The notes under the pieces are model-generated. The model saw only the letters and a program-made list of their open reading frames with translations. It did no database searches and had not been told where the DNA came from. DNA of 62,637 nucleotides, filler included. It is 10 parts of 10 records of this genome, joined end to end, with 100 filler letters (N's around TTAATTAATTAA, not from the genome) between each part and the next. Parts side by side here need not be neighbours in the genome. Positions count along the whole stretch, not along the records: positions 57,877 to 62,637 come from SRR15195285_1793; 9 more parts are not named here. One strand, given 5' to 3'. Position 1 is the first letter of the stretch; the number at the start of each line of letters is the position of its first letter. The position numbers and the translations under genes were made by a program. Shown piece by piece: positions 18,923 to 62,637 of the stretch.

Positions 18923-20266
18923 CTAAGCAAGTGCCTCCGCCACAGCTTCCTCAAAGATCTGCAGAGCAGTGTCGATCTCCTCCTCAGTCACCACCAGAGC
19001 TGGGATGAAGCGAACAGATTGTCGTGTTCCCATCGTGAGCAGCAGCATGCCACGTGACAAACTGGCTTTCGAGACGCGGCCAGCAATCCCACTGTACTCG
19101 CCGGCATAAGGCTCAGCATTCATGGCCGGGTCAAACTCCACACCCACCATCAACCCGCGCCCCCGGATATCGCCGATCACACCTGGGTACTTGTTTGAGA
19201 TGGCGTGGAGCCCGGCACGCAGCTGCTCGCCGCGCGCGGCGCAATTTTCGATGAGACCCTCTTCCTTGATCACACGCAGCGTTGCGAGCGCAGCGGCGCA
19301 GGCCACGGCATTCCCGCCGTATGTCCCGCCGAATGAGTTTGGAGAGTCGAGCTGGTGCGCCGCGTGCTCACCCGTCGTGAGGACAGCGGAGATCGGGTAG
19401 CCGGAACCCATTCCCTTGGCGGTAACGATGACATCTGGAGCGATGCCTTCCTCCCAATCTAGCCCCCAGACCTTGCCCGTGCGGCCCATTCCCGACTGCA
19501 CCTCGTCGGCGATAAAGAGGATGCCGTGCTCATCGCAGAATTTGCGGAGGCTCGCCAGGTAGCCAGCTGGTGGTACAACGTAGCCGCCCTCTCCTTGTAC
19601 TGGCTCGATGATCAGTGCAGCAACCTCTGTCGGGCTAACGCTACCCGCCATCAGTTGGTCCAGCCCAGCCAACGCAGCCTCTTTGGTGATACCTGCGTAC
19701 TCGTATGGGTACGGGGCCATGACGATGCCGCCTGGCATCGGCCCCGGCTGCTTGCCTCGGTAACTCGTGCCGGAGCTCGTCATGGCCAATGTCTGCTGTG
19801 TCCGGCCGTGGTAGCCGCCCATGAAACAGATCACATTGTTGCGGCCAGTGGCTAAGCGCGCCACGCGGAGGGCATTTTCCACCGCCTCTGCGCCAGAGTT
19901 CGCATAGAAGACGCTGTCCATCCCTGGCGCCAGTGCGAGCAGCTCGTCCGCCAGCTCGAGCCCGATGCTGGAGTAGAAACACGACTGCTGCGTATGCGTT
20001 ATCTTCGCCGCCTGCTCTTGTACAGCTGCCACAACCTTCGGGTGGCAGTGGCCGGTTGAAAGCACACCGATGCCCGAGGTCATGTCCAGGAACGATGCGC
20101 CCTCGGCCGTCCAGACAGTCGACCCCTCGCCGCGCTCCACCACCAGCTCCGACATGCGCTTGATCCCGGGAAACATCCGCGCCTCAGCTGCAGCGCTGCT
20201 CCCAAACGCTCGAGCCGCCGTCGTGCAGGGCACCGAGCGGGCCGCCAGAAGGCGCCTGCTGAGCAT
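18923..20266 (-). CDS. Class III PLP aminotransferase (GabT/4-aminobutyrate aminotransferase-like) with mitochondrial presequence, intronless
   Basis: MLSRRLLAARS presequence; FLDMTSGIGV, NSGAEAVENA, GGYHGRT, IEPVQGEGG, FIADEVQSGMGRTG, TAKGMGSGYP (PLP Lys), GGTYGGN. Confidence 0.9.
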   Translation of the reverse strand: MLSRRLLAARSVPCTTAARAFGSSAAAEARMFPGIKRMSELVVERGEGSTVWTAEGASFLDMTSGIGVLSTGHCHPKVVAAVQEQAAKITHTQQSCFYSSIGLELADELLALAPGMDSVFYANSGAEAVENALRVARLATGRNNVICFMGGYHGRTQQTLAMTSSGTSYRGKQPGPMPGGIVMAPYPYEYAGITKEAALAGLDQLMAGSVSPTEVAALIIEPVQGEGGYVVPPAGYLASLRKFCDEHGILFIADEVQSGMGRTGKVWGLDWEEGIAPDVIVTAKGMGSGYPISAVLTTGEHAAHQLDSPNSFGGTYGGNAVACAAALATLRVIKEEGLIENCAARGEQLRAGLHAISNKYPGVIGDIRGRGLMVGVEFDPAMNAEPYAGEYSGIAGRVSKASLSRGMLLLTMGTRQSVRFIPALVVTEEEIDTALQIFEEAVAEALA

Positions 20267-20853
20267 CGCTGATCCGTCCGCTGCGGGGGTGTCGCGCGGT
20301 GATGCCGCGGGCGCCGGCCGTATCCTAGATACAGCTGTTACGTTCCCGAGATCCCGACCACTGCTGCAGTACAAGAGTACATTCGGGTACTCGGTAGGAC
20401 TGACCAAGGGATGGATGAGAAAATTTTGCTCAGAACNNNNNNNNNNNNNNNNNNNNNNNNNNNNNNNNNNNNNNNNNNNNTTAATTAATTAANNNNNNNN
20501 NNNNNNNNNNNNNNNNNNNNNNNNNNNNNNNNNNNNTCCATTTCTTATCCTTGTCCCCCCTGTGTAGGATTCCTACACACTCAGTTCTGCTTTTGAAATT
20601 CTGTGAAATCTCCAGAATCAGAACTCCGAATCACGCCGAATCGAAAACCCGAGAGGTTCGGCAGGCTCGCCGGCCGAGCGAATATTAGTCCGCGGCGTTG
20701 GTCACTCGGAGGGACCTCTACAATCTCGTAATCATTTATGGCAGGTGGCTAGCAATTAATTATACAAATTGCCGCGAATAATATGAGTATATCTCTACGG
20801 TAGAGTGCGGATCCGCGGAACGCTCCTCCACGCAGCGTGTGCGGAAGGCGTTG

Positions 20854-33681: not shown

Positions 33682-33925
33682 TTCAGACAGAGGCAACGTC
33701 CGCGCGCGCGCCGCGGCCTGCACGCGTACTGTCCAGGCAATCGCCGTCCGGTCCCAACCGCGCGCGCAGACGCTTTAGCAAGTCGTACTTGTTTACTGCA
33801 TATGTTTGAGTTTTTCATACTACGCNNNNNNNNNNNNNNNNNNNNNNNNNNNNNNNNNNNNNNNNNNNNTTAATTAATTAANNNNNNNNNNNNNNNNNNN
33901 NNNNNNNNNNNNNNNNNNNNNNNNN

Positions 33926-57597: not shown

Positions 57598-58378
57598 CCT
57601 GAGCACTGCGCTGCTGCAGCGATATACGCGAGGCGGGGCGGGCCTGCCGGTCGATCTGTGGTGTGCTTCTTAGCTCTTTGCGTGTAGCGTCTTGTCGCTG
57701 CAGTCAATCTAATGCCGCAGCCGCTTCGCAACGACAGGGAAGGTTCTGCCTATCGCCCACACTGTCTCATACACTGNNNNNNNNNNNNNNNNNNNNNNNN
57801 NNNNNNNNNNNNNNNNNNNNTTAATTAATTAANNNNNNNNNNNNNNNNNNNNNNNNNNNNNNNNNNNNNNNNNNNNGCGGGGTCGGGGAGGAGCCGTGTC
57901 GGCTGGCGTTGGCAGCCGCGTTTGTCGGCGCTACGCAACTTTAAACTTGCGATCGACCAGATTCGAGACTTGAACGCAGGGAGGTGTTGCTAGCTGATTG
58001 GCAAGAGAACACCGTGCAGAGAACACCGTGTTGAGTTTACAGCTGTCTCGAATTCATGCATGTAGTTGAATCTAATGACCGAGAAAGGTGTAAACTCAAA
58101 GGTCCACTTCGCAGCTCCAAATTGATTAGGCGTCTCTCCTCGCTTTGTGCACTATCGTTGCTCCCAGCGTAGCCAACATCCACCACCTAGCCTATCGCCC
58201 TGCGCAGTGCCAGCGTGGTAGTGGGTTAATGCGTCGCCCGCGGGCGCGTTGATCTAGCTACAGCCGAAACGACGAGAGTTGAAGAATATATTGTCTGACA
58301 CTGGCGTTTTCGATTTTGAGGACGCTCGGAACACGGGGTAGTGCAATGCCAACACCAAGGGATACGTGGTAGCTAGCG

Positions 58379-60120
58379 CTACGCAACACTCTTTGTCAAG
58401 CGCAGCACGACGGTCGAGTGCGGCCGCACGGTCACATTTGCGATCTTCCCCGTTGCAGTCATGGGCACAGCCGGCGAAGCCGCCGAATGATTTCCCCAAA
58501 GGTCTTTGACTGTGGCTTTCGCTGTCGCTGGCCAGCCGAACGCACCGAAGGAAGCTCCAATTGACTTCGGGGTATCTTCCTCATTGTAGAGCGCAACGGC
58601 GATGTCACCACCTGCCAAATGACGGGCCCACACTGTGGAGTCGCCAGCAACGATGGGAAAGCCCTGCGGCGTGACCTGTTGGTTGATGGCAATCACGTCT
58701 TTGTTCAGCAGGACGATTTTTTGAACCTCGTTCAGGACTCCCTTGCAGTTGTGCTTGACAGGATTCGGGGGCGGCGGCGGGCCGGAGGGATGGTGGCCGG
58801 GGCCGGATGGTTTGTTGCCTTTCTTGCATGGGCAGGTGTGAACGCCATCCCCATCGATGTCGCAAACAACATCGGTCACCCCGTCACAAGTAAACTCGCC
58901 ACGGCAGCCCTTGGTCCACATCGTCTTGTTCGCCACGGTACCAGAACAACCGAAGCTAGTTCCTTCCACACATTTGGCGATTGAGCGCTGTTTGGTAAGC
59001 GTGACTGAGCATTTTGCGGATTCATCCAGCTTTGCCTCCGGGTTCGAATCCACTGTTGAACGACGCTCACCGGTGGAGCCTTCGGCGTCCAGAACAGCCT
59101 TTGCAACATTGTCTTCAGCGAGCTGCGATGCTGAGCAGTTGAAAATTGGTGTGGTGACGACAAGTGGCGAGGCAGCAATGGCCCACATAGAAAACTCTGT
59201 GATGGACTCGTCGAGGTTCATGTTGCCCTCCTTGCCGTTGGCGTGGGCAGCTTGCAGGCCATTCCCCGTCTCAAGCATGCTGCAAACCAAGGAAGCATCT
59301 CGGTAAGCGGCATTGGCCTGTCCTAAAGTGTGCGCAGATGCAGAATTTTGGCGGCGACTCACTCCATGTCATTCCACCCATACGGGCGGCCCGAATACTC
59401 CTTCGGGATCTTCATCACCTCGCTGATGATGCCCTTAGTGGAAGACCATGTGCCAGTGTGATCGCCAGTCGCGCGCCACGACTGTGCACACGCATCACCC
59501 CACTCCCACGGGTTTTGCTTGCCCCACTCGCACATGTTGAACGCAATATGGCGCCCCGATTCGTTGAGGGCCTTGCCCATCTTGGGATAGGTATCTTTCG
59601 GGTCCTGTGGAGCTGAGTTGCACCAATCCATTTTAACCCAATCCACCCCCCATTCTGCGTATGCTTGGGCATCCTGCGTCCAGTAGTTTTCAGAGCCGAC
59701 GCGGCCACCGACGCAAGTCTTGGTGCCACCGCACGTGTAGAGTCCGAATGCCAGCTTGTCACCCTCATCCCCTTTGGAATGCACGTAGTCGATCACAGGC
59801 TTCATTCCGTTTGGGAAGTGGTCTATCTCGGGATAGGGAAATCCGGTGGCGTTGCGCTCCCGTGCTGCCCAGCAATCATCAAGGTGCAAGTGGCGGTACC
59901 CCGCCTCGTAGAGACCAACCTCCATGAAGGCATCGGCCGCAGCCTTGACAGAGTTCTCATCGCAGTAGTCGAAAACTGGGTGCTCGTCACCGGGCCCGAG
60001 CGCGACCCAGGAAGACCAGCCCAGCGCTGGCAAGCGCGAGTGTGGCGCGCCGTTGTCGTAGGCAGCTGCGGGGGTCATGGCTAGACAGGCGGCGGCCACG
60101 AAGACAGCGGTGTGCATCAT
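58379..60120 (-). CDS. Secreted alpha-galactosidase (GH27) with an inserted Cys-rich module, 2 exons
   Basis: YDNG..PALGWSSW, LDDCW, GVDWVKMDWC, SWRATGDH, spliced GWNDMDMLE, FSMWAIAASPL, LLNKDVIAINQ; C-terminal beta-sandwich (VKDLW, VRPH..VVLRL). Confidence 0.92.
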
Positions 60121-60647
60121 ATCTGCAGCGGCGTCGCGCAGTTCCGTCCGGCTGGAGCAGCTCGAGAATCCACACCCTGGCACACCCCGGCGCTGTACTA
60201 TATAGCAGAGCTAGCAGCTGCAGCTGCACGTCGAGCAACCGGCAGGGCACTACTAGCCTTGGCACGCACCCGCCGCCGGGGCCGCACCCGGTTCACCGGC
60301 GGGGAGTCCAGGAACCTGGGCACAGCGAATTATGCAAAACCAAGTTGTCAAGGAGCATCTGAGCGGTTTAGGTTGTCAACTTGGTAGGGATCCCTAGCTA
60401 GTCTCTACTAGTACTATAATTATTATATTCGAATATATTCGAATAGTCCCGGGTAGGAATTCCTACAGTAGTGCTACCTAGGTACCTGTTTAACATGCAC
60501 CTGTTTTCTGTGTATGTTTGACTTTGACTTTTTTATCCTACCACTAGCACCGGGTGGGAAGCGAGGCGCCAGCGGTGCGAGGCGCCAGCGGGTGCGAGGC
60601 GCCAGCCTTGGCCTGGGGTACACGCTTGAAGTTGCACAGCGGAAGGA

Positions 60648-62441
60648 ATGGAGGGCGGGGCCCCGGCAGGCGCTCTGCCGTTCAAGTGGAAGGATCGGCT
60701 TGCTGGGAACGTGCATGCACAGACGACAGATGTGCTGTCGGGCAGCCTGCCAAAACAGCCTCTTTTCGTTCACTGCCAGAACTGCGACCCGGAGAAGACT
60801 GGCATGGCCTCGCTGCAGCTGGCGAGGGTCGCGGTGCAGTGCGCAGTATGCCAGACTGGTGCAGCTGCTGGAGGCGGCGAGCCCGCGCCCGCGCCCGCGC
60901 CCGCACCCGCACCCGCACCCGACGCGCCCGAGAGCATTCCAGGCGTCTACAAGTCATCCGATAGCGCAGAGCGACTGGCAGACAAAATTAAGAACCGCCG
61001 TGCGGATGCTGCAAACTTTGCTGCTTTCCTGGCGGGGGCTGACCTCGCGGCAGCTGTGGCCGGGGTAGACGAAGAGATCAAACAGCTAGCCGCACGTATC
61101 GCCGCACTAGAAGCGGCGGCTCCGGCAGGCGTCCGCCCTCCGGAAGCTGTTCCGCCTCCGGCAGGGTTTGTGCTCCCGCCTGTGCCAAGCGCCACTTTCC
61201 AGTCATTGGTCGACGGGTCCATCAAAGGAATGTGCTACAGTGTAGAGTGTGGTGGTGCTCAGACTGCAGCGGAGGTGCAATTCCACTGCGGCAACTGCGG
61301 AAATCAAGGCTCCGACTGCGTCTGGCTCCCGCAGATGCGCAGCCCCATGCCGGAAGAGGAGTGTTGCATCTCCATGATGGAGATTGACGAGCCGCCGATT
61401 GAAGACGGTCCCTGCCCCCCCTGTGCGGTTGTCTTCGACCCATGCGGCTGCGTCGCAGACGTCACAATGTTTGCGGAGCAGATCAAGCAAGGCATTCAAT
61501 CCGGGGGAGGACGGTCCGTGATCACGATGGACCCATGCACAGAACTGTTTTCGATGCGATGCCCAAATCACCCACAAGGTGGTGAGCACGAGACGTCCTT
61601 TGTGCATTGCGTTCATCACTTCAAGGTAAGTGTTCTCACCGTTGCTTCTTCGTATGCGTTTTGGCTTCAACGTATGGCGAACGCACCCCGTGCAATTTCG
61701 TTAATGGGAATCACGCTCCGCTGCTGCTGTGGGTTGTCCAAAATGCAGGTTGGTGGTCCGAAGCTCTATGGCAGAATCAAGGACTGGGGAATGGAGCAGA
61801 TGGTCATCGAGGCTGGTGGGATATGCTGTCCGATTGGTGGTTGCCCTGCACAAGGGACTCCCTTTATGCGTCCATATCAGCCAATTGACGCGGCCAACCC
61901 GACCAAACAGCGGTGCGAGGCCTGCTCCAGCTGTGAGGTTCGTGGCGGTCAGTGCCCCGGCTGTGAGAACTGCAAGTATTTCTGCAGCGAGTGTCACGTC
62001 GAGTGGGGCAGTAGCCGCGACTGCGCACACTCGTATGTAGCGCCACCAGAAGCTGAACCCGCAGGCCCGACGGACCACGAGCTATTGATGCAGGCTATGG
62101 AGCAGTTTGGCTTTGCGCAGTGCCCAAAGTGCAAGGAGGGGGCGGAGCTCAAGCAGGGCTGCAAGTTTGTCTACTGCCGTTGCAAGCAGAAATTTTGCTA
62201 CCATTGCTCGCGTCCGCTGGGAGATAATCAGCACTACTCGCACTTTGAAGTGGCAGCGATCGCCGACCAGCCGGGCATTGAAGTAGGTAAGAAAGATGGC
62301 CCATTCGGCGACAAGTGCGTCGGGGGTCGGAAGGATAGAAAAGGCCACGTTGCAGAGCCTGCATGTCCGAGCTGCAGCGGATGGTCGGGCCAGAAGACAG
62401 ACTGTGACGTCTGCAGGGACTGGATGCGTGAAGCGGAATAA
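60648..62441 (+). CDS. Parkin-like RBR E3 ubiquitin ligase (RING0-RING1-IBR-RING2), no Ubl seen, 2 exons
   Basis: RING0-like LFVHC..C..RVAVQCAVC...GMC..VEC..AEVQFHC; spliced HHFKVGGPKLYGRIKDWGMEQMVIEAGGICCPIGGC (intron 61626-61748); IBR YFCSECHVEW; RING2 CPKCKEGAELKQGCKFVYCRCKQKFCYHC. Confidence 0.8.
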   Translation: MEGGAPAGALPFKWKDRLAGNVHAQTTDVLSGSLPKQPLFVHCQNCDPEKTGMASLQLARVAVQCAVCQTGAAAGGGEPAPAPAPAPAPAPDAPESIPGVYKSSDSAERLADKIKNRRADAANFAAFLAGADLAAAVAGVDEEIKQLAARIAALEAAAPAGVRPPEAVPPPAGFVLPPVPSATFQSLVDGSIKGMCYSVECGGAQTAAEVQFHCGNCGNQGSDCVWLPQMRSPMPEEECCISMMEIDEPPIEDGPCPPCAVVFDPCGCVADVTMFAEQIKQGIQSGGGRSVITMDPCTELFSMRCPNHPQGGEHETSFVHCVHHFKVSVLTVASSYAFWLQRMANAPRAISLMGITLRCCCGLSKMQVGGPKLYGRIKDWGMEQMVIEAGGICCPIGGCPAQGTPFMRPYQPIDAANPTKQRCEACSSCEVRGGQCPGCENCKYFCSECHVEWGSSRDCAHSYVAPPEAEPAGPTDHELLMQAMEQFGFAQCPKCKEGAELKQGCKFVYCRCKQKFCYHCSRPLGDNQHYSHFEVAAIADQPGIEVGKKDGPFGDKCVGGRKDRKGHVAEPACPSCSGWSGQKTDCDVCRDWMREAE

Positions 62442-62611
62442 TACGTTGTGGCAACACCTTTGAAATGAATCACTGTCCCAGTGTGCATTAATCATTTTCT
62501 TCGGGGGCAAATATCTAAGCTGCTAAAGTAACAGTTCAGTCTAGCTTTTGCACCATCCACTATCCTTTTCTCTTCACACTTCATCGGAGACAATTCTTTA
62601 AAAGTCTTGCT

Positions 62612-62637
62612 CCCCCCCCCCCCCCCCCCCCCCCCCC
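62612..62637. repeat. Poly-C tract at window end (poly-G also at 4559-4583; CT and CTGT microsatellites at 42192-42241 and 42342-42372)
   Basis: Low-complexity runs at contig termini, read directly. Confidence 0.85.

Follow-up and report, generated by a model that had tools for sequence, protein, structure and literature searches.

Passages of PMC2904391, PMC3789837, and PMC12670562 call parkin and/or PINK1 animal- or metazoan-specific, and part of PMC12344103 describes yeast and plants as lacking the PINK1-Parkin pathway. The locus described here raises the question of whether a Parkin-like ubiquitin ligase is encoded in a genome outside animals. It lies at positions 60648..62441 (+) of a stretch of 62,637 nucleotides, filler included (hereafter the window), which joins 10 parts of 10 records of one genome and whose positions 57,877 to 62,637 come from SRR15195285_1793. 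An earlier note, made from the letters of the sequence, had proposed a Parkin-like ligase with the RING0 domain but no ubiquitin-like (Ubl) domain in an apparently non-animal genome, and had stated, in agreement with the first three sources, that Parkin is generally regarded as an animal gene. The gene is one open frame of 597 codons when left unspliced, and the excision of an intron gives a protein of 556 residues from two exons. Taken as a whole, including the steps of the mechanism proposed below, it is probably best explained as a real two-exon gene of a picoeukaryote, encoding a Parkin-related RING-between-RING (RBR) ubiquitin ligase.

Similarity to Parkin in sequence and predicted fold

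Parkin was the best match of the window protein and its close relatives (the window clade) in both sequence-profile and fold comparisons, by a wide margin. The profile of the clade itself (A4) had five rows—the two exons of the window gene and the relatives P0002, P0005, and P0008—and contained no canonical Parkin-like sequence. When it was searched against the sequences of the PDB, Parkin occupied the first 25 of the 37 rows (best E 7.2e-14), followed by RNF216 (5e-4) and Ariadne (1.4e-3). The broader family profile (A3, 18 rows) placed Parkin in the first 24 of the 60 matches listed (E 4.3e-22), with an alignment to rat Parkin that is unbroken from residue 142, where RING0 begins, to residue 460 of RING2; the first non-Parkin RBR among these matches aligned in RING2 only (1.3e-10). 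The homologue search of the 18-row alignment returned five close relatives only, and no named Parkin. A third profile, made of the window exons and P0002 (A2), retrieved 179 proteins at E<=1e-3 among 1.84 billion. One of them, P0095 (E 1.8e-5), is named 'E3 ubiquitin-protein ligase parkin-like [Dreissena polymorpha]' at NCBI, and hhalign matched it to A4 with a probability of 98.4, an E value of 4.6e-15, and 35% identity over 94 columns. The preference for Parkin is not a default of the method: the control profile of a neighbouring RBR family (A6) found RNF216 (6e-24) and ARIH1 (2e-18) before Parkin in the same PDB sequences. We also scanned 30 relatives with Pfam at E<=0.01. The gathering score of zf-RING_14, the Parkin RING1 family (26.6 bits), was reached by four of them (P0095, 108.1 bits; P0064, 40; P0153, 27.3; P0082, 27.0), and ten others had weaker matches.

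Fold comparisons gave a similar picture. AlphaFold2 produced no usable model from a 3-row alignment (predicted local distance difference test, pLDDT, of 32.3). We refer to the model of the ortholog P0002, which is 71% identical to the window protein and was predicted with a 66-row alignment; its mean pLDDT is 78.8, with low values just at the N-terminus, in one loop, and in the IBR (43-48). Foldseek returned Parkin in every match listed to rank 32 (E 3.9e-11 to 6.9e-6), with HOIP next (1.1e-2), and the matches to the RING0-RING1-IBR constructs 7us1, 8w31, and 8ikt had TM scores of 0.62-0.64 and a root-mean-square deviation (rmsd) of about 5 Å. The superposition on Parkin that the earlier note had called for was made with VIA-align and covered RING0-RING1: the best 25 rows were all Parkin (Z 13.1-18.1, rmsd 2.2-3.2 Å over 178-190 residues), with model residues 56-69 to 372-447 paired, in most rows, with Parkin 140-145 to 327-340, and the next family was RNF216 (Z 8.9 over 88 residues). 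Even the degenerate RING1 of the model superposes on that of Parkin, and the RING0 fold is predicted to pack on RING1 as it does there.

The window protein is thus nearer to Parkin than to any other solved RBR, and chance cannot account for the similarity (E 4.3e-22 and 7.2e-14 in the profile searches, 3.9e-11 in Foldseek, Z up to 18.1 in VIA-align). These analyses show homology to Parkin across the Parkin-only RING0, RING1, the RING1-IBR helix, the IBR, and RING2. The central claim of the earlier note, a RING0-bearing Parkin-like ligase, is borne out by two profile searches, the hhalign comparison with the Dreissena protein, and the predicted structure.

Gene model, domain anatomy, and residue states

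Exon 1 (60648..61625, +) encodes residues 1-326, with a conserved N-terminal motif, a split RING0, and a degenerate RING1, as far as the letters HHFK. The intron (61626-61748, +) has 123 nt, begins and ends with GT..AG (GTAAGTGT...AAATGCAG, i.e., GTAAGT...CAG), keeps the frame, and is free of stops. Exon 2 (61749..62441, +) encodes residues 327-556 and the TAA stop, and carries the remaining RING1-IBR helix, the IBR, a REP-like helix, RING2, and a C-terminal extension. We read 61626-61748 as an intron because the ortholog lineages of P0002 and P0005 run through this point without a break (HHFK-LAGPKLYG and HTFK-LVGSALYA), and because P0003 and P0004 diverge there, the former meeting a stop 8 residues past HHFK and the latter continuing in another frame. 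Splicing joins HHFK to VGGPKLYGRIKDWG, and the string that the earlier note had quoted, HHFK followed by VGGPKLYGRIKDWGMEQMVIEAGGICCPIGGC, was recovered exactly once the intron was removed. A second GTAAG at about 62286 was considered as an intron and ruled out, since the orthologs and an RNA contig pass straight through it. RNA contigs of three metatranscriptome runs, 95-99% alike, cover 60554-60869, 61247-61397, and, without interruption, 62015-62455, which suggests that the gene is expressed.

In what follows, residue numbers are those of the spliced protein, and Parkin equivalences come from HMMER alignments to Parkin chains and a residue map. The protein has a two-zinc domain directly before RING1, as the Parkin family does, here split by an insert and with a fold that is predicted. 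The first half of RING0 (60765..60854, +; residues 40-69) reads FVHC-x2-C ... C-x2-C, in the place of Parkin C150, C154, C166, and C169, and overlaps a weak Pfam match to Zn_ribbon_10 (residues 25-69). The second half (61230..61300, +; residues 195-218) reads C-x4-C ... C-x2-C, in the place of C196, C201, C212, and H215, the last being Cys here. All eight zinc ligands (C43, C46, C65, C68, C196, C201, C214, and C217) are therefore present and collinear with those of Parkin, with about 125 residues inserted between C68 and C196. The insert (60855..61229, +; about residues 69-194) consists of an Ala/Pro-rich low-complexity part, a predicted two-helix hairpin, and a Pro-rich linker. The hairpin, at about residues 107-157 (60966-61118), corresponds to AlphaFold2 helices 134-153 and 158-186 of P0002, with a pLDDT mostly >90, and matched generic helical hairpins only in a structure search (Z about 7). 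Ahead of RING0, residues 1-39 (60648-60764) carry the conserved motif LPFKW.DRLAGNVH..TTD.LSG, at residues 34-61 of P0002. The VIA-align rows of 8ikt, 7us1, and 6glc start at model residue 56, which is paired with Parkin 102 in 8ikt and 6glc, the two that contain the Parkin activating element. In the model, the motif might occupy a place on RING0 like that of the activating element, although this is speculative.

The downstream part follows the RBR order, i.e., RING1, IBR, and RING2 (Rcat) with a catalytic Cys, with RING1 reduced to one zinc site. RING1 (61353..61577, +; residues 236-310) retains the ligands of site II (C266, C268, C305, and H308) and has lost site I: the equivalents of C241, C260, and C263 are missing, with just one Cys near the position of C238, so that the eight ligands of Parkin RING1 (C238, C241, C253, H257, C260, C263, C289, and C293) are not all found. 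The Parkin-type RING1-IBR helix (61593..61805, +, with the intron inside) reads SFVHCVHHFK followed by VGGPKLYGRIKDWG. The IBR, delimited by alignment to that of Parkin (61818..62030, +; residues 350-420), is enlarged by a Cys-rich insert (CEACSSC...). This insert (61900-61980, CEACSSCEVRGGQCPGCENC) matches P0059, a protein of 1761 residues with 16 such stretches, at 46 bits with the profile and 85 bits with the IBR piece alone, and has the look of a repeat motif acquired by the IBR. After the REP-like helix (62073..62114, +; DHELLMQAMEQFGF), which corresponds to AlphaFold2 helix 459-470 of P0002, RING2 (62115..62246, +; residues 449-492) retains its zinc ligands and comprises C451, C454, the catalytic C464, F466, K474, C476/C479, and then QHYSHF. 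The C-terminal extension (62295..62438, +) has the pattern DGPFG..C.GG..D.KGH.AEP.C..C.GW....C..C, with invariant Cys/His columns, and is modelled confidently (pLDDT 90-94 at P0002 residues 531-570).

In Parkin, W403 of the REP blocks the E2 site, Y312 is counted with the phospho-ubiquitin site on the RING1-IBR helix, and H433 and E444 are catalytic, forming a triad with the catalytic Cys. What C431, the REP, the Ubl, RING0, and both pockets do in Parkin is described in parts of PMC11368401 and PMC9284454, which place the phospho-ubiquitin pocket at K151/H302/R305 (PMC11368401) and the basic phospho-Ubl pocket of RING0 at K161/R163/K211 (PMC9284454, PMC11368401). The by-eye residue assignments of the earlier note hold in our alignments. 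The phospho-ubiquitin site is partly kept (H302 is H323, R305 is conservatively replaced by K326, and Y312 is Y333), to which we add that K151 is replaced by Q44. The phospho-Ubl pocket is eroded to R60/A62/H213. The REP Trp is absent, with E444 of the window protein at the position of W403, an assignment that carries the uncertainty of aligning a short REP-like helix. The catalytic Cys is retained (C464 for C431), with Phe in place of H433 (F466) and, as a further change, K474 in place of Parkin E444. Besides the changes at K151 and E444, the note had not reported the RING0 insert, the loss of RING1 site I, and the C-terminal Cys/His extension.

In summary, the window protein resembles Parkin (PRKN; PDB 4k95, 5c1z, 5n2w, 7us1, 8ikt, etc.) in the order RING0-RING1-IBR-(REP-like helix)-RING2, in the eight RING0 ligands, in the HHF[K/R]...Y helix, where H302 and Y312 are matched by His and Tyr, and in the catalytic Cys. 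It differs from Parkin in lacking the Ubl and the Ubl-RING0 linker, in its split RING0 and its RING1 without zinc site I, in residue states (K151 to Q, R305 to K, K161/R163/K211 to R/A/H, W403 to E, H433 to F, and E444 to K), in its enlarged IBR, its extra C-terminal Cys/His module, and its non-animal host, and in being missed by the Pfam models of Parkin.

Relatives, absence of the Ubl, and host

The proteins that match the RING0/RING1 part in the A2 search form a family of unlabelled metagenome proteins. The window protein belongs to this previously unnamed Parkin-like family, some members of which keep an N-terminal Ubl and a canonical RING1. Its closest orthologs are P0002 (71% identity) and P0005 (53%), and the whole module is conserved in five lineages of the window clade. 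Many other members (P0038, P0044, P0046, P0047, P0050, P0054, P0058/P0176, P0069, P0084, P0117, P0145, P0082, etc.) share with it the RING0 pattern, a RING1 without site I, and the signature FDPCG...SFVHDIHH[FY]K...Y, but most of them lack the IBR, have His at the position of H433, and end in another helical domain; P0176 has a Ubl. Architectures are diverse, with Ubl, SAM, or WW domains and with or without the IBR, which many members of the wider family have lost. The loss of RING1 site I is common to most of the family, P0153 and P0077 excepted. Among the family rows of our alignment A5 that have a residue at the position in question, H302 is His in 23 of 30, R305 is Lys in 25 of 30 and Arg in 2, Y312 is Tyr in 24 of 25, the catalytic Cys is present in 20 of 23, and H433 is His in 17 of 24.

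In the unrooted maximum-likelihood tree (25 rows, 324 columns), the window clade has a support of 99/98 and groups with IBR-bearing Parkin-type sequences, namely P0153 with P0173 and the Dreissena protein with P0064; the tree does not order these three IBR-bearing groups among themselves. The median length of the end branches is 0.85 changes per column, and neither direction nor age can be read from the tree because it is unrooted. The IBR-bearing relatives on this side—P0153 (Ubl-RING0-RING1-IBR-RING2), P0077/P0173 (with a WW insert), P0064, and P0095—differ from the window protein by their full eight-ligand RING1, and P0153 also by its Ubl. P0064, a metagenome relative of 335 residues with 40 bits for zf-RING_14, has a ubiquitin-like domain (38 bits) between IBR and RING2 rather than at the N-terminus.

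We searched segments of the window protein piecewise against the collected relatives. The piece covering the second half of RING0 and RING1 matches the Parkin-like family only, with 29 matches beyond the clade itself, including P0153 and P0095. The C-terminal parts recall a separate RBR family (P0011, from the transcriptome of Artemidia motanka, P0013, P0014, P0017, P0020, etc.), which has the same Cys-x-Phe/Tyr active site in RING2, the same QHYSHF, and the same extension (DGPFG..C.GG..D.KGH..P.C..C.GW..C), but a canonical C3HC4 RING1 and no RING0, and has RNF216 and ARIH1 as best PDB matches. P0011 and P0014 also have weak, sub-threshold UBA-like matches. The two groups would either be related beyond the resolution of our analysis or have exchanged the C-terminal module. 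Exon shuffling at the intron, as a simple source of this mosaic similarity, was rejected because the Parkin-like helix extends about 15-20 residues into exon 2.

The absence of a Ubl, as stated in the earlier note, was upheld. Pfam found no ubiquitin domain in the window protein, and a tblastn search of the whole window with three Ubl domains of the family, those of P0153, P0176, and P0064, gave a best E value of 0.36. Just 464 bp separate the start codon from the neighbouring alpha-galactosidase gene, which is transcribed divergently, and the five ortholog lineages start at or near the conserved N-terminal motif (LPFKW/LPFAW). The window protein thus appears to lack the domain, even if a distant and very divergent exon remains conceivable. 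A longer model, P0159 (715 residues), was rejected as evidence of one: its extra upstream part is low-complexity only, with no Ubl-like sequence by eye. The relatives P0153 (51 bits) and P0176 (44 bits) have an N-terminal Ubl, and Ubl-bearing members lie on both sides of the branch that parts the IBR-bearing from the IBR-less rows. The Ubl was therefore probably lost secondarily in the window lineage, a scenario that this distribution favours without proving it. The earlier note had described the protein as 'ancestral or independently modified', and the second term fits better than the first, because of the split RING0, the loss of site I, the C-terminal module shared with another family, and the Ubl-bearing relatives on both sides of the tree.

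The closest named relatives of two genes of the window lie in Picozoa single-cell co-assemblies, which PMC8599508, in the part that concerns them, describes with low contamination. The 90%-identity cluster of P0002 includes a EukProt protein of Picozoa sp. COSAG06, and that of another ortholog lineage, P0154, includes one from Picozoa sp. COSAG04. COSAG06 also has a relative, at 85% identity, of a class-III aminotransferase encoded in the window 40 kb from the ligase gene. P0008, a more distant member of the clade, was found in the transcriptome of the diplonemid Artemidia motanka. The stretch is present in runs from 17 studies (seawater and marine metagenomes). The window is dense in genes, has open reading frames (ORFs) that run uninterrupted for up to 2254 codons, and contains ordinary eukaryotic genes (Dcc1, Sec6, PARG, Anp1, and a mitochondrial carrier). 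Judging from these relatives, the host is probably a marine picoeukaryote, heterotrophic and akin to the Picozoa single-cell assemblies. It is, in line with the earlier note, not an animal: some contamination of such assemblies is conceivable, but two co-assemblies and two genes agree.

The intergenic region upstream of the ligase gene (60184..60647), between it and the alpha-galactosidase gene (-), is the presumed promoter and 5' UTR. An AT-rich stretch at about 60390-60540 differs between strains. It lies within an AT-rich, palindrome-like region (60347-60554; ctagctag..., tattcgaatatattcgaata) over which a DNA contig has many small deletions, with breaks at 60511/60554; an RNA contig also breaks at 60554, with nearly identical foreign letters. 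The break was considered as a splice site to a 5' exon and ruled out, since the DNA run and the RNA run share it; their near-identical loose ends point to strain variation instead. A small promoter element, either mobile or hypervariable, may lie here. The alpha-galactosidase gene itself (58379-60183, -) is divided between two ORFs that abut in different frames, Melibiase_2 being followed by Melibiase_C (Pfam Melibiase_2 on 59359-60183, -), which implies a short intron or frameshift near 59360. A CUB domain protein is encoded near the ligase gene.

Elsewhere in the window, the class-III aminotransferase (18923-20407, -) has two close relatives at 94% and 85% identity, the latter being the one labelled COSAG06, and next matches at about 50-58% that include Chloroflexi-type bacterial enzymes; the gene may be of bacterial origin. 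The 2254-codon ORF (33878-40642, -) combines an N-terminal OTU deubiquitinase domain with WD40 repeats and is the second ubiquitin-system gene of the window. A 1483-codon ORF (42420-46871, +) has the unusual pairing of many WD40 repeats with a C-terminal Ion_trans domain. The window ends in about 30 C (62608-62637), possibly the end of an assembly or else a homopolymer tract.

Proposed mechanism, alternative explanations, and meaning

We propose that the window protein works as an RBR ligase. E2~ubiquitin would dock on the one-zinc RING1, and ubiquitin would pass from the E2 to C464 and then to the substrate. Ubiquitin or phospho-ubiquitin might bind the RING1-IBR helix as an allosteric switch or activator, because the equivalents of H302 and Y312, and Lys for R305, are conserved family-wide. 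The Ubl/RING0-pocket step of Parkin activation would be missing or replaced, because the protein has no Ubl and has R/A/H in the basic pocket. Autoinhibition may differ from that of Parkin, as the earlier note had surmised.

Several observations weigh against this reading. In the window ORF and in each exon, Pfam detected neither zf-RING_12 nor zf-RING_14 at E<=10, so the domain check that the earlier note had suggested came out negative; the sole Pfam RBR signal of the protein is IBR_1 at 22-24 bits, under the cut-off of 27, and zf-RING_12 (RING0) was found in none of the 30 relatives scanned. A phmmer search of the window protein against PDB sequences gave nothing significant (Ariadne RING2 at E 0.08, Parkin IBR at E 1.6), language-model look-ups in the ESM Atlas with whole P0002 and with its residues 205-378 returned generic IBR/RING clusters only (scores 0.83-0.92), and the RING0/RING1 stretch of A4 alone scores just 7.5 bits in the PDB sequence search. 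The structural model is that of the ortholog P0002 and not of the window protein, and its match to Parkin is not independent of sequence homology, because AlphaFold has seen Parkin structures. Full, autoinhibited R0RBR structures of Parkin align over RING0-RING1 and the start of the IBR only, so the model does not display a Parkin-like packing of RING0 on RING2. The piece with the REP-like helix and RING2, and the C-terminal extension, score best against the separate RBR family and not the Parkin-like one. The branch that parts the IBR-bearing side from the 16 IBR-less rows has a support of 86/95, and several branches are long. In the three metatranscriptome runs, no RNA contig bridges the intron, no joint was seen, and 61398-62014 has no RNA contig. 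Finally, the loss of site I together with the changes at H433 (Phe) and E444 (Lys) could mean weak or no ligase activity.

Some of these points would be accommodated if the protein were an RBR ligase of a generic kind whose N-terminal zinc domain is unrelated to that of Parkin, its likeness to Parkin being convergent or an artefact of profile drift or of AlphaFold's memory: single-sequence and language-model searches see only generic RBR signals, RING2 and the extension resemble another family, and RING0 has no Pfam match. We regard this as highly improbable, since the own-clade profile prefers Parkin by about 10 orders of magnitude with no canonical Parkin-like row in it and also retrieves a named animal parkin-like protein, the segment with the second half of RING0 and RING1 matches the Parkin-like family only, the eight RING0 ligands are collinear with those of Parkin, and the control family prefers non-Parkin proteins. 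That the gene is a divergent animal Parkin paralog, from an animal host or from contamination, is barely credible. A nearby CUB domain protein would fit an animal source, as would the fact that the nearest named sequence to score strongly on zf-RING_14 is from a mussel, but the Picozoa co-assemblies hold the closest named relatives of two window genes (71% and 85% identity) and, in the second of them, a further ortholog lineage, and the gene density, the ORFs of up to 2254 codons, the 123-nt intron, and the marine runs from 17 studies also speak against it. Transfer from animals to protists or in the reverse direction, rather than descent from an early eukaryotic ancestor, would suit both the animal-specific status given to Parkin in the passages of PMC2904391 and PMC3789837 and the scarcity of non-animal taxon labels, of which there are just two (Picozoa and the diplonemid Artemidia) among mostly unlabelled metagenomic relatives. 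It nevertheless seems improbable, given a family this deep and diverse (0.85 changes per column in the median end branch, several architectures) and an unrooted tree in which the animal sequence is not nested in the window clade, nor the window clade in the animal sequence.

The alternative that we take most seriously concerns function rather than descent: the protein might be a pseudo-ligase or adaptor of Parkin-like origin that has lost ubiquitin transfer and keeps a ubiquitin-binding or scaffold role. The missing RING1 site I, the Phe and Lys at the positions of H433 and E444, the lack of any detected Pfam RING family in the window protein, and the loss of the IBR in many members of the wider family all fit this view. 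We hold it to be rather unlikely, because the catalytic Cys is present in 20 of the 23 family rows with a residue there, all zinc ligands of RING2 are retained, and the whole module is conserved in five lineages of the clade. Furthermore, a separate RBR family whose RING1 is intact keeps Cys-x-Phe/Tyr and the C-terminal extension (near-)invariant, a finding in favour of a variant but functional active site. An active Parkin-related RBR ligase of a picoeukaryote remains our preferred explanation.

We found no report of Parkin outside animals in the literature that we covered, i.e., abstracts and open passages, with subscription journals and supplements outside this scope; domain databases may already list such non-animal matches without comment. 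What is new here is the combination, in one Parkin-related ligase, of a RING0 split by an insert, a RING1 with a single zinc site, the lack of a Ubl, and a C-terminal module that looks borrowed, in a lineage, and in a broader family from metagenomes, where Parkin is unexpected. It may be that the Parkin design predates animals or extends beyond them. More tentatively, and with more doubt than confidence on our part, RING0-RBR ligases might be an old eukaryotic family (in Picozoa, perhaps diplonemids, and widespread marine metagenomes) of phospho-ubiquitin-gated enzymes served by a PINK1-like ubiquitin kinase outside animals, as the family-wide conservation of the His/Lys/Tyr pocket would suggest, with the window gene as a Ubl-less derivative activated in a single step. 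A RING0-bearing Parkin-like family in non-animal plankton would place the origin of the Parkinson's-disease ligase earlier, or imply transfer between kingdoms, and gives a concrete reason to seek ubiquitin Ser65 kinases in protists. Its members are natural 'deletion mutants', without Ubl, REP Trp, or catalytic His and with a one-zinc RING1, that can show which parts of the multi-step autoinhibition of Parkin are essential.

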